Shown: in pieces, positions 21,751 through 50,771 of the stretch | How positions within the stretch are numbered: position 1 is the stretch's first letter | Layout of the letters: the number at the start of each line of letters is the position of its first letter | Assembly: GCA_951406725.2 (NCBI GenBank) | Contig: OX597830.1 | Span: 45,942,001-46,006,000, forward strand | DNA length: 64,000 nucleotides | Reading direction: 5' to 3' | DNA from: Octopus vulgaris | Taxonomy: Eukaryota | Notes under the pieces: model-generated | What the model was told of the DNA's origin: nothing | The model's input: only the letters and a program-made list of their open reading frames with translations | The model's database searches: none | Position numbers and translations under genes: made by a program

Positions 21751-21787
21751 AATTTTTCCTGGCCACTGTTTCCAGCGACTCTGATCC
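21751..21787 (+). CDS. Gene A micro-exon ([12 protein letters not shown]), possibly the end of a signal peptide
   Basis: aatttcacag acceptor, gtaagt donor, phase 1-2 matching the next exon. Confidence 0.6.
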
Positions 21788-48700: not shown

Positions 48701-50771
48701 CTTCCGGGCATATTGCTTTAATGCCCGACGGAACTCCTTGTAGCATAAATTCCCAATGGCGCTGTCTACGAGGAAAATGTGTTGTAAGTATACTGTTTGT
48801 GTGTTTACCTTGCACTGCTATGAACACATTCAAATACCAATAATTGGGTTCCTGTGTTAAAACGTTTTGCTTGGGTATTCATTCTATTATCTCAGAAACT
48901 ATTGTTACTAGAAAGTTTAGTTTTGAAAATTCCGTAGGATATTAAAATACGACTTGCTATAAACAGAACTATCGCTCTAAAACCACAAATTACTCACAAT
49001 TAAAATACACACGGCGAATGCAACAAATATGACAGAAATAGGCTTACCTTGTATGAACTACAGAAGTAAAGAATGCATATATTCCGGGAAGTTTTCAAAA
49101 GGTTTAATGAAAAATAACAACTAATTAATCAATAAGGTATTAACCCTTGTTGTTTACAACTTCTTCCCAATGTTCAACAAGATTTTCAATACTTCGTTGG
49201 TAGAAATCTCCCGATTTCCACTCGAAAAATTGATCCAACCAAGCTCTCAATTCTGCATAAGTATTGAGTGAAACTCCGCGCATAGCATTTGAAAGAGATC
49301 GAAAGAGGTGGAAATCCGTTGGTGCCAAATCAGGAGAGTACGGCGGGTGTGGCAACACTTCCCAGCCATGCGTTTGAATGGTTTCCTTGGTCATATTGGC
49401 GATATGAGGGCGGGCGTTGTCGTGCAGCAGAAGAACTCCATGCTGCTGATTAGATCTTTTCTCTTGAATAGCAGTGTTGAGTCGTTCCATCTGTTGAACA
49501 TAGAATTCCGCGTTGACCGTTTGGTTCCGTTCAAGCAATTCGTAATGGATAATCCCTTCCCAGTCCCACCATACGCACAACATCGTTTTACGCGGATGAA
49601 GATCTTGTTTCATGTGCAGTGTCGCTTGTTTACCGGAGCTAAGCCATTCCTTAAGCTGCTTCATATTGATGTACAGGCGCCATTTTTCGTTGCCTGTAAC
49701 AATTCGGTAAAGAAATCGTTGCTTGTGTCCATGAGTTGAGCGGTGACGAGCAAGCAAACCAGCGGAGATTGTGGCTCGTTGACTTTTGTTGTCACTTAAA
49801 GCATACGGAACCCATGTTCCATACTTCTGAGCCTTTCCCATTGAGTGAAGATGCTTCTCTGTAGCAGTGTGGGAGCATTCCATTTTCTCTGCCAGTTCCC
49901 TTGTCATTTGTCGAGAATTTTTGTGCAAAAGTTGGTTTAATCGCTCTTCATCGATCTCAACTGGACGGCCAGAACGAGGTGCGTCTTTGAGGTCAAAATT
50001 TCCCTTTTTGAACTTGGTCTACCAATCAAAAGCGGTTCTTTCAGCTATGGCACCCTCTCCACACACAGCCCAAATGTCGCGAGCAGCTTTTGCGGCCTTA
50101 GAACCTTGATTAAACGCAAAAAGGAGGTGTCGAAAATGCTCGCTTCTCTTAACTTGACATTCCATTTTAATGATTTGAAAATTAACAAAAATTAACTAAA
50201 ATTTACTAGCAAAAACAAAATAGATTCCAAAATGATTCAAAAATAGAATTCTCGAAAAAAATAGATTCCCAAATTTCAAAACGCAATCAATACCAAAATT
50301 TAAAACAAAGGCGGGAACATAGTTGCCAACCCAATACAATAAATAGTATACATTTGGGCTGCTGTTATTAAGATTTCTAAAGCCATATAATTAATCGAAC
50401 GGTCAATGTGCGTTTTCACATACGATGGGAGAGAGAAATGAGTTTACTGTTTTATTCCTTTAGCGTTCTCCGATTCGTTCGGAACAGTGGCTAACCAAAT
50501 TACTTATGTAGTGAGGAAAAGACATCACGAACTAGGTTATAAATTTGCAAGAAAGATGAAGAGAAATAGAAATATTATCGATATAGAAAACGAAATACTT
50601 TCTAAATACTTTACACAAACACATTGAAAAACTTTGACTTCGTTAATGTTTTATTCAAAATATGATTGAATATTCCTTGAAAATACCTTTTGTTCAGATC
50701 ACATCACTTTCTTTCCTTTTTTTATCTTTTTTTTTCAGAATTTCGGCACAAAAGGGTATGCGAACGTTTGA
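21751..50771 (+). CDS. Gene A, overall span: ADAMTS-like M12B metalloprotease with two PAN/Apple domains inserted in the Cys-rich domain
   Basis: 18 GT-AG exons join without frameshift or stop, in the order prodomain, catalytic HExxH, disintegrin-like, TSP1, Cys-rich N, PAN, PAN, Cys-rich C, stop. Confidence 0.92.
22650..24400 (-). mobile_element. Old, fragmented non-LTR retrotransposon remnant (possibly L1/Tx1-like)
   Basis: Several broken - strand ORFs including IKLLG (RT-like) and Cys-containing pieces; no intact motif. Confidence 0.35.
25486..25764. repeat. Long (AAT/AAC)n microsatellite between SINE B pieces
   Basis: Direct reading. Confidence 0.98.
25765..25966 (-). mobile_element. 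SINE family B copy
   Basis: Reverse complement matches the 6589 head and body (gagttcaaattccgccgaggtcgacttt). Confidence 0.85.
26084..26403 (-). mobile_element. tRNA-derived SINE family D (3' half shared with family C)
   Basis: Head gagggcgcgtggcttagtggttagggc, central gtgtccttgagcaagacactt; near-identical to 45722-46040. Confidence 0.9.
26518..26767 (+). CDS. Gene A prodomain exon
   Basis: ttttcag/gtaagt, phase 2-0; ends [23 protein letters not shown], typical of reprolysin propeptides. Confidence 0.9.
27182..27571 (+). mobile_element. SINE family C copy
   Basis: Matches 21016-21403; 12-bp TSD tattacccttat. Confidence 0.92.
27723..27837 (+). CDS. Gene A prodomain exon ([16 protein letters not shown]...)
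   Basis: tttttccag/gtaaat, phase 0-1; continues the CNGL-xGxI...YxIxP propeptide motif. Confidence 0.88.
29369..29523 (+). CDS. Gene A exon, start of the catalytic domain ([14 protein letters not shown]...YLVAAWNT)
   Basis: Phase 1-0, donor gtaagt; matches the M12B first strand and helix. Confidence 0.88.
29654..29740 (+). CDS. Gene A catalytic exon ([29 protein letters not shown])
   Basis: tgtttcag/gtaagt, 87 nt, phase 0-0. Confidence 0.88.
30772..30872 (+). CDS. Gene A catalytic exon (ALRSVCVWA...FDHIHIVT)
   Basis: actttcag/gtgagt, phase 0-2; similar to ADAMTS LxxFCxW...D-AxLxT. Confidence 0.9.
32202..32327 (+). CDS. Gene A catalytic exon with HEVAH
   Basis: atttcag/gtatgt, phase 2-2; [18 protein letters not shown]...TLSHEVAHG. 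Confidence 0.93.
33031..33156 (+). CDS. Gene A catalytic exon with the third zinc ligand and Met-turn
   Basis: cttccag/gtaatt, phase 2-2; IDIPHD...C...GVMG...WSVCA. Confidence 0.93.
33733..33833 (+). CDS. Gene A exon (GKGKCMQE...LLP)
   Basis: tctttcag/gtaagt, phase 2-1. Confidence 0.88.
34421..34634 (-). mobile_element. SINE family B copy with 17-bp TSD
   Basis: TSD taccaattctaggtatt at 34404-34420 and 34635-34651. Confidence 0.92.
35719..35798 (+). CDS. Gene A disintegrin-like exon ([14 protein letters not shown]...)
   Basis: ttccacag/gtgagt, phase 1-0; similar to ADAMTS PG..Y..D.QC...FG. Confidence 0.88.
36184..36288 (+). CDS. Gene A disintegrin-like exon (KCGIISC...NGLSCGPQM)
   Basis: ctcttcag/gtgagt, phase 0-0. 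Confidence 0.88.
36439..36678. mobile_element. Diverged fold-back MITE-like element
   Basis: Imperfect ~95-bp inverted arms (tggatgagaatacac / gtgtattctcatcca). Confidence 0.7.
37520..37830 (+). mobile_element. RTE-clade LINE RT remnant
   Basis: [10 protein letters not shown], a degenerate YADD box, at about 37572-37605. Confidence 0.55.
37843..38239 (+). mobile_element. Non-autonomous Helitron-type element
   Basis: A|TC...cccgagcaacgccggg...CTAG|T; same family as 20457-20843. Confidence 0.85.
38680..40351 (+). mobile_element. Near-complete ORF1-only retroelement (CCHC knuckle), copy A, frameshifted
   Basis: 5' UTR, broken ORF from about 38834 to 40177 with [24 protein letters not shown], then ~175 bp ending aataaagaaataaa; no RT or endonuclease. 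Confidence 0.8.
40477..40640 (+). CDS. Gene A TSP1 exon
   Basis: attttag/gtaagt, phase 0-2; [30 protein letters not shown]. Confidence 0.96.
41526..41586 (+). CDS. Gene A TSP1 C-terminal exon ([20 protein letters not shown])
   Basis: tttttcag/gtacgt, 61 nt, phase 2-0; homologous to 62498-62558. Confidence 0.93.
42606..42747 (+). CDS. Gene A Cys-rich domain, N-part (SCNTRE...[11 protein letters not shown]...)
   Basis: ttttacag/gtaagt, 142 nt, phase 0-1; homologous to 60598-60739. Confidence 0.92.
43689..43922 (+). CDS. Gene A PAN/Apple exon 1
   Basis: tctaacag/gtgagt, 234 nt, phase 1-1; SIKGFDD...[17 protein letters not shown]...KCDLS...WDLY. Confidence 0.93.
44165..45462 (-). mobile_element. 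Full-length mariner (DD34D), 1298 bp, transposase disrupted
   Basis: TIR ttgggttggcaactaagttccc at both ends, TA TSD; WVPHTL, TGDEKW, HDNARPH, YSPDLAS-D; in-frame stop at 44821. Confidence 0.96.
45722..46040 (+). mobile_element. SINE family D copy
   Basis: Near-identical to the reverse complement of 26084-26403. Confidence 0.9.
46593..46826 (+). CDS. Gene A PAN/Apple exon 2
   Basis: atattttag/gtaagt, 234 nt, phase 1-1; SIYGYDDLG...[17 protein letters not shown]...KCDLS...WDHY. Confidence 0.93.
48632..48783 (+). CDS. Gene A Cys-rich domain, C-part (GLCEVEC...MPDGTPC...WRCLRGKCV)
   Basis: caaacag/gtaagt, 152 nt, phase 1-0; ADAMTS C-x3-C...DGTxC...CxxGxC pattern. Confidence 0.93.
49090..50334 (-). 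mobile_element. Second mariner of the same family, 3' TIR lost
   Basis: TIR ttgggttggcaactatgttccc ending at 50334; 262-aa ORF with TGNEKW (first catalytic D changed to N), [16 protein letters not shown]. Confidence 0.95.
50739..50771 (+). CDS. Gene A probable terminal coding exon ([10 protein letters not shown])
   Basis: Long polypyrimidine tract plus cag, phase 0; similar length and xF start to the gene B candidate terminal exon. Confidence 0.6.
   Translation, partial: NFGTKGYANV

Follow-up and report, generated by a model that had tools for sequence, protein, structure and literature searches.

How does a protease of ADAMTS descent come to carry two PAN domains in the middle of its Cys-rich domain, and what could they do at this place? 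The question is raised by a gene, here named gene A, in a stretch of 64,000 nucleotides of the Octopus vulgaris genome (GenBank assembly GCA_951406725.2, contig OX597830.1, positions 45,942,001 to 46,006,000 of the forward strand), which was analysed at full length and is called the window; positions below count from its first letter. We found that both PAN domains are encoded by exons of one spliced transcript and are nested within the ADAM-type CA part of the Cys-rich domain. Proteins of this kind are already present in the databases with their domains listed automatically, and every part of them is a known module. With a probability of roughly 0.6 we read the PAN pair as a substrate-docking arm (exosite) of this predicted, ADAMTS-derived protease.

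Gene A and its transcript

The coding span of gene A runs on the plus strand from 13643 to 50771, and its 20 exons (Table 1) encode 817 amino acids, of which 806 are identical to the Octopus sinensis protein XP_029646989.1 (P0006), leaving 11 differences. A preliminary description, made from the sequence alone, had proposed 18 exons. All of these are real, with AG/GT ends, matching phases and an open reading frame throughout, but two coding exons at the 5' end, located by tblastn with XP_029646989.1, had been missed, and exon 3 starts at 21739 in the RefSeq-matched model and not at 21751.

All six GT..AG junctions between the TSP1 and the stop exon were found on one contig in three of four runs (three studies), which bears out the proposed order of TSP1, N-terminal half of CA (CA-N), PAN, PAN, C-terminal half of CA (CA-C) and a tail of 10 amino acids; the fourth run contained unspliced pieces only over this stretch. 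The 5' junctions from 26518 to 33156 are present in all four runs, and in the runs X3 and X10 a single contig spans the 5' and the 3' stretches. The gap of 286 nt between them equals the three intervening exons (101 + 80 + 105), so that the exons of the disintegrin-like (D*) domain are bridged by the same contig. The main transcript of gene A neither skips the PAN exons nor continues into a spacer, the two outcomes that the preliminary description had named beforehand as fatal to its proposal. The runs were taken as RNA by automatic guess and the junction evidence begins at exon 4 (26518); assembled contigs lose rare variants, and minor isoforms skipping the PAN exons may therefore still occur.

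The N-terminus of the product is hydrophobic as judged by eye, corresponding to a signal peptide, and the protein is predicted to be secreted. As anticipated, Pfam recognised reprolysin, TSP_1 and two stretches of PAN_1. PAN exons 1 and 2 match with E-values of 1.7e-10 and 4.9e-11 (41 and 42.8 bits, cut-off 21.4), and reprolysin reaches 37.1 bits (cut-off 20.8) in the O. bimaculoides orthologue P0002. The prodomain gave only a weak match to Pep_M12B_propep (E 0.098), and the match of the CA-C exon to Adt-1 (E 7e-6) lies below the family cut-off. The D* domain and the central thrombospondin repeat (TSR) are both present. All six CA cysteines are retained though separated by 156 amino acids, and the four CB cysteines are absent. 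With the stop 10 codons past CA on an RNA-supported exon, gene A has no spacer.

Origin of the interrupted CA domain

Using a query from the N-terminal part free of PAN and TSP1, a HMMER search of 1.84 billion representatives gave 634 matches with E <= 0.001, and the ten top matches looked up, among the matches listed, were from seven bivalves, one chiton, one octopus and one cuttlefish. The bivalve and chiton proteins show CA followed by CB and a spacer-type region. A PAN profile matched 10 of 186 collected proteins, all in the clusters of gene A, of its neighbouring paralog gene B and of the Logan protein P0007. Thus, among the sequences found, the PAN-bearing form is restricted to cephalopods, in line with the lineage-specific protease first proposed. 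The first two CA cysteines are 28–33 residues apart in 38 of the 46 proteins with CA motifs (a set including many near-copies), all of them PAN-less, while the gap is 189–191 residues in seven two-PAN proteins and 111 in a one-PAN model. In the MAFFT alignment the CA halves flank a clean gap. The short spacing in the PAN-less relatives and this clean gap argue that the interruption is derived.

In the ESM Atlas, limited to clusters of at least 50 members, M12B and PAN do not occur together in any cluster, and a word-index search was blank, the method being insensitive as it also missed known paralogs. Neither this architecture nor any of six accessions was found to be described in the literature searched, subscription papers lying outside the search.

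The intron phases point to how the PAN domains arrived. Entry of a symmetric exon into an existing intron of the same phase is an established signature of exon shuffling. Each PAN exon encodes one domain and has phase 1 at both ends, and the host intron is of phase 1 as well, as is characteristic of class 1-1 modules. In five of six other octopus ADAMTS-type loci a phase-1 intron lies 4–6 codons before the C-x3-C motif of CA; these six come from nine loci picked by their spacer or Adt-1 matches, in three of which no CA exon was found inside 20 kb, and among the five intron-bearing loci both sides of the intron were read in three and the acceptor only in two. Phase 1-1 PAN exons together with a phase-1 CA intron in relatives are the expected signature of symmetric exon insertion, and both the intron phases and the position of the junction described below agree with the earlier suggestion that PAN modules were shuffled into a loop of the Cys-rich domain. 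The borders on either side of CA have phase 0, as they do in canonical genes, so that the tail of 10 amino acids stands where the relatives start their CB exon.

PAN exons are not rare in this genome. At least 38 matches to them lie elsewhere, outside the window, and a sample of 11 of them showed a phase-1 acceptor in every case and, by pattern, a phase-1 donor in six. At C10:23.28-24.97 Mb at least 33 matches stand on one strand within 1.7 Mb, and three further ones were found at C18:43.14-43.22 Mb and two at C13:19.93-19.98 Mb. They look like an array or one very large gene with many PAN domains, and are a possible donor family. Using PF19236 exon by exon in the own genome gave no match, and no control matched either.

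Position of the insertion and predicted fold

A profile of the PAN-less relatives aligns the junction to G471-C483 of ADAMTS13, anchored on H476-S477-Q478. According to the available part of Takeda 2016 (PMC4885070), the stretch of about 471–483 is the V-loop or exosite 2, whose length in ADAM_CR domains ranges between 6 and 27 residues and whose deletion or mutation in the CA domain of ADAMTS13 leads to less cleavage of VWF; a later study cited there locates the key contact at the V-loop's base.

An AlphaFold2 model from 111 sequences reached a predicted local distance difference test (pLDDT) of 82.9 and a predicted template modelling score (pTM) of 0.75, with both CA halves confident; CA-N contains a helix and a strand, and CA-C consists of strands. 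Residues 197-814 of the model align to residues 79-540 of the ADAMTS13 chain 6qig over 389 residues (Z 20.3), and the match to ADAMTS1 has a Z of 21.9 with a root-mean-square deviation (rmsd) of 4.0 over 260 aligned residues, Z being about 21–22 for ADAMTS1/4/5. From residue 53 on, in the prodomain, the model overlaps the ADAM17 zymogen, and in ESM Atlas models about 139 residues across 500-816 align to ADAMTS proteins. The CA-C exon alone gave no sequence match in the Protein Data Bank (PDB). The model suggests that the two CA halves close into one domain from which the PAN pair loops out at the V-loop. The PAN domains themselves show fold matches to factor XI, prekallikrein, MIC4, SML-2, plasminogen and HGF.

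Catalytic domain and relation to ADAMTS

The zinc motif H336-E337-H340-D343-H346 is split between 32311-32327 and 33031-33049 and is followed by the Met-turn M362 at 33092, and E201 and D292 of the Ca site are retained. Compared with the ADAMTS definition given in part of Kelwick 2015 (PMC4448532), the product of gene A has the signal peptide, the prodomain, the M12B domain with three His, Glu and Met-turn, the D* domain and the TSR, and it lacks the consensus residue at position 8 of the zinc motif, the 10-Cys region and the spacer. Strictly it is not an ADAMTS, having neither CB nor spacer, yet judged by its sequence it is descended from one and likely works like one.

Paralog C and the loss of the spacer

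The preliminary description also suggested that the PAN modules may have taken over from the spacer, which was not borne out. Paralog C (P0014; CAI9719167.1 / XP_029634272.1) at C3:37.94-38.00 Mb is free of both PAN and spacer. It shares with gene A the subfamily, the phase-1 CA intron, the lack of a spacer and the lack of RxxR, but differs in that its CA intron holds no PAN exon, a stub of CB is kept and the zinc motif has Gly. A spacer-less paralog without PAN means that spacer loss may be older than, or independent of, the gain of PAN, and the PAN domains may have joined an already spacer-less enzyme. In a quick tree C was sister to the PAN clade with a support of 93 in the Shimodaira–Hasegawa-like approximate likelihood ratio test (SH-aLRT), with two mis-sliced rows (P0020, P0035) included; the 20-row tree without these two gives no support for placing C. 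Two alternative tails of paralog C are annotated (P0014, P0161). Six peptide matches to it are present in the O. vulgaris skin-mucus proteome (part of the supplement of PMC10138644), and the accessions of A and B that were searched for were not found in the same portion of this supplement.

Role of the PAN pair

The insertion lies at the loop that grips the substrate in human ADAMTS13, and the PAN domains are therefore likely to steer the enzyme to its targets. We propose that in an early coleoid a mollusc-type ADAMTS gene took up a symmetric PAN exon in its old CA intron, that this exon was then copied in tandem, and that the host gene later duplicated into A and B, with CB and spacer being lost before or after the gain of PAN. 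The prodomain would be removed outside the furin route, and the PAN pair would then bind an extracellular substrate at a surface formed by protein or glycan; this substrate, most likely a matrix or mucus glycoprotein, would be held for cleavage at the zinc site. A leech PAN protein is described to bind collagen (PMC7191736, in the part available).

Several observations weigh against a substrate-docking arm built in this way. Gene A, like P0007, has Asp at position 8 of the zinc motif, where the ADAMTS consensus is G/N/S (Kelwick 2015, PMC4448532, available part). No RxxR precedes the catalytic domain in any of the four cephalopod members, while nine of 11 other relatives have one, so that activation probably differs. 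One of the six octopus CA domains has no intron at the insertion site, and paralog C does without spacer and without PAN. Neither PAN domain is markedly basic (net charge +1 and −2 in P0006), and heparin binding is thus not indicated. Regarding the fold, the alignment to 6qig has an rmsd of 10.9, a model from a shallow alignment of 9 sequences failed outside the PAN domains (pLDDT 38), and the alignment behind the better model already pairs the CA halves through PAN-less relatives.

It is also possible, though we do not favour it, that the PAN pair anchors the enzyme to a cell surface, the matrix or a carrier, or holds it latent, and has no part in the choice of substrate. Prekallikrein and factor XI are the top fold matches of the PAN domains and their apple domains bind kininogen, platelets and heparin (PMC7191736, available part), and the absent furin site in A hints at another control step; against this stand the location of the insertion at the ADAMTS13 substrate loop and the lack of strong basic charge.

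A bolder form of the docking-arm reading appears rather doubtful to us: here coleoids would have dropped the spacer and put a lectin-like PAN pair into the exosite loop via an ancient intron, making a glycan-guided mucus or matrix protease, with the V-loop intron as a natural socket for retargeting.

We consider it unlikely that gene A encodes a weakly active or inactive binding or decoy protein with gene B as the working protease. Asp at position 8 is indeed rare, being found in seven of the 162 collected proteins with the motif, six of them A-type, and the missing RxxR would fit as well. However, all three His, the Glu, the Met-turn, E201 and D292 are retained, and the same Asp motif is kept in P0007 at 45% identity. 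Asp, like Asn, tolerates the turn conformation of the zinc motif, which also counts against inactivity.

Even less probable is a salivary or venom protease digesting prey tissue, a role that the preliminary description had mentioned and for which nothing was found in support. Venoms and saliva often contain M12B proteases (PMC7191736, available part) and the gene A product is by prediction secreted, but neither a motif nor an accession matched in the portion searched of an O. vulgaris salivary-gland supplement (PMC7693380), a preprint of 2026 on cephalopod venoms (bioRxiv 10.64898/2026.04.09.716377) does not mention ADAM or metalloproteases in its main text, and the sole proteomic lead is from skin mucus, for paralog C.

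That the architecture is an artefact of gene models, with PAN exons skipped or taken from another gene, might be thought from the varying automatic models (one in O. bimaculoides without CA-N, a later version splitting the gene in two, gene B with one PAN, and the O. vulgaris model joining a transposase piece to the prodomain) but is ruled out for the main isoform by the single contigs with all six junctions from three studies, and the Logan proteins P0007, P0009 and P0010 show the same order on contigs of about 2.9 kb.

The locus offers an unusually complete record of domain-in-domain exon shuffling, with the empty intron in paralogs of the same genome and phase-matched PAN exons elsewhere, and as the landing loop has a measured substrate role in ADAMTS13 the gene would allow a direct test of the modularity of ADAMTS specificity there. 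Its weight is limited by the fact that the modules are known, the domains are annotated automatically and the function is inferred.

Gene B, related proteins and other features of the window

Gene B lies tail-to-tail with gene A and its 5' part extends about 22.5 kb past the window. It had been overlooked before, as had the change from Gly to Asp in the zinc motif of A and the absent furin site. Gene B is 43% identical to gene A and its zinc motif has the canonical Gly. In both genes the CA-N, PAN, PAN and CA-C exons measure 142/234/234/152 nt, and a search of the genome with the CA-C exon matched A and B only. The two PAN exons of gene B share 90% identity in 301 bases, intron flank included (84–85% in protein), and those of gene A are 42% identical in protein; the pair in gene B may have undergone later gene conversion or re-duplication. 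One O. bimaculoides model of B (P0013) has a single PAN.

P0007, P0009 and P0010 share the design of gene A at 45% identity. Compared with P0007, the two PAN domains are conserved at 49% and 36% and the catalytic domain at 49%. The closest named match of P0007 is a fragment from Sepia pharaonis (72% over 124 amino acids), which ends short of the PAN region. In the 20-row tree, A groups with P0007 (support 96/88), and A, B and P0007 form one clade (97/97). We infer that P0007 is decapodiform; if so, both the PAN insertion and the duplication into A and B are older than the separation of octopuses from squid and cuttlefish. Genes A and B are a small, apparently cephalopod-specific protease pair, named ADAMTS1-, 7- or 13-like in the databases.

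Table 1: Coding features of genes A and B in the window.
Feature	Position	Strand	Content	Basis
Gene A exons 1-3	13643-13726, 17327-17381, 21739-21787	+	signal peptide, first part of prodomain	tblastn with P0006, splice sites, phases
Gene A exons 4-5	26518-26767, 27723-27837	+	prodomain	splice phases, RNA joints
Gene A exons 6-11	29369..33833	+	M12B catalytic domain	Pfam Reprolysin; RNA joints up to 33156
Gene A exons 12-13	35719..36288	+	disintegrin-like (D*) domain	spanned by 286-nt contig gap
Gene A exons 14-15	40477..41586	+	end of D*, single TSP1 repeat	phases, Pfam, RNA joints
Gene A exon 16	42606..42747	+	CA N-half (helix and strand), 142 nt, phase 0-1	RNA joints, MAFFT, model
Gene A exon 17	43689..43922	+	PAN domain 1, 234 nt, phase 1-1, 4 Cys	Pfam, RNA joints, fold matches
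Gene A exon 18	46593..46826	+	PAN domain 2, 234 nt, phase 1-1, 4 Cys	Pfam, RNA joints, fold matches
Gene A exon 19	48632..48783	+	CA C-half, 152 nt, phase 1-0, 5 Cys	Pfam, RNA joints, MAFFT, profile
Gene A exon 20	50739..50771	+	10-amino-acid tail and stop	RNA joint 48783>50739
Gene B 3' exons	52673..62559	-	tail-to-tail with gene A	RefSeq models in O. bimaculoides and O. sinensis
Gene B TSP1 exon	near 62559-62498	-		
Gene B CA-N	60739-60598	-		
Gene B PAN	58160-57927	-		
Gene B PAN	55722-55489	-		
Gene B CA-C	53998-53847	-		
Gene B tail	52702-52673	-		

The O. vulgaris model CAI9735286.1 (P0001) wrongly fuses the remnant of a hAT-type transposase (4696-5995) to the prodomain exons (26518-27875), and with this model mis-joined gene A looks unannotated in that O. 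vulgaris set. Two decayed copies of a mariner/Mos1-type transposase lie on the minus strand between the PAN exons (44260-45318) and before the last exon (49143-50018), and Gag-like zinc-knuckle remnants of retroelements are found in two introns of gene A (39107-40174 and 18866-19846). A GC-rich tandem array with a unit of about 41 bases occupies 349-2590 of the window.

Comparison with known systems

The nearest known system is a mollusc ADAMTS subfamily, which provides the top non-cephalopod matches and forms one clade with the cephalopod genes; automatically annotated examples are Magallana XP_011415206, Pecten XP_033759955, Mya XP_052783844 and Liolophura XP_064615206. These proteins have the same order of Pro-M12B-D*-TSP1-CA and the same CA helix and C-x3-C motifs, whereas their CA is unbroken and PAN-free, mostly with a furin site, and most keep CB and spacer, often with ShK, LDLa or MAM tails. 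After the spacer the tails vary throughout P0015-P0033 (ShK, LDLa, MAM, Thr-rich stalks), and from its sequences the subfamily looks prone to module exchange.

Human ADAMTS13 (6qig) is the best sequence match in the PDB and shares the M-D*-T1-CA core with the V-loop at the insertion site, but its V-loop is short, CB, spacer, further TSRs and CUB modules follow, and it has no PAN. Russell's viper RVV-X offers an analogy, as it also carries an extra binding module on ADAM_CR as a capture exosite; in the available part of PMC4885070, however, this module is described as a lectin-like chain of its own, disulfide-linked at the hypervariable region (HVR), and not as an in-frame insertion into the V-loop. 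The PAN/apple proteins plasminogen, HGF (N-domain), factor XI, prekallikrein, MIC4, SML-2 and leech LAPP share the PAN fold, but their PAN domains are terminal or serial and occur with serine proteases or alone, whereas those of gene A are nested in an ADAM_CR domain.

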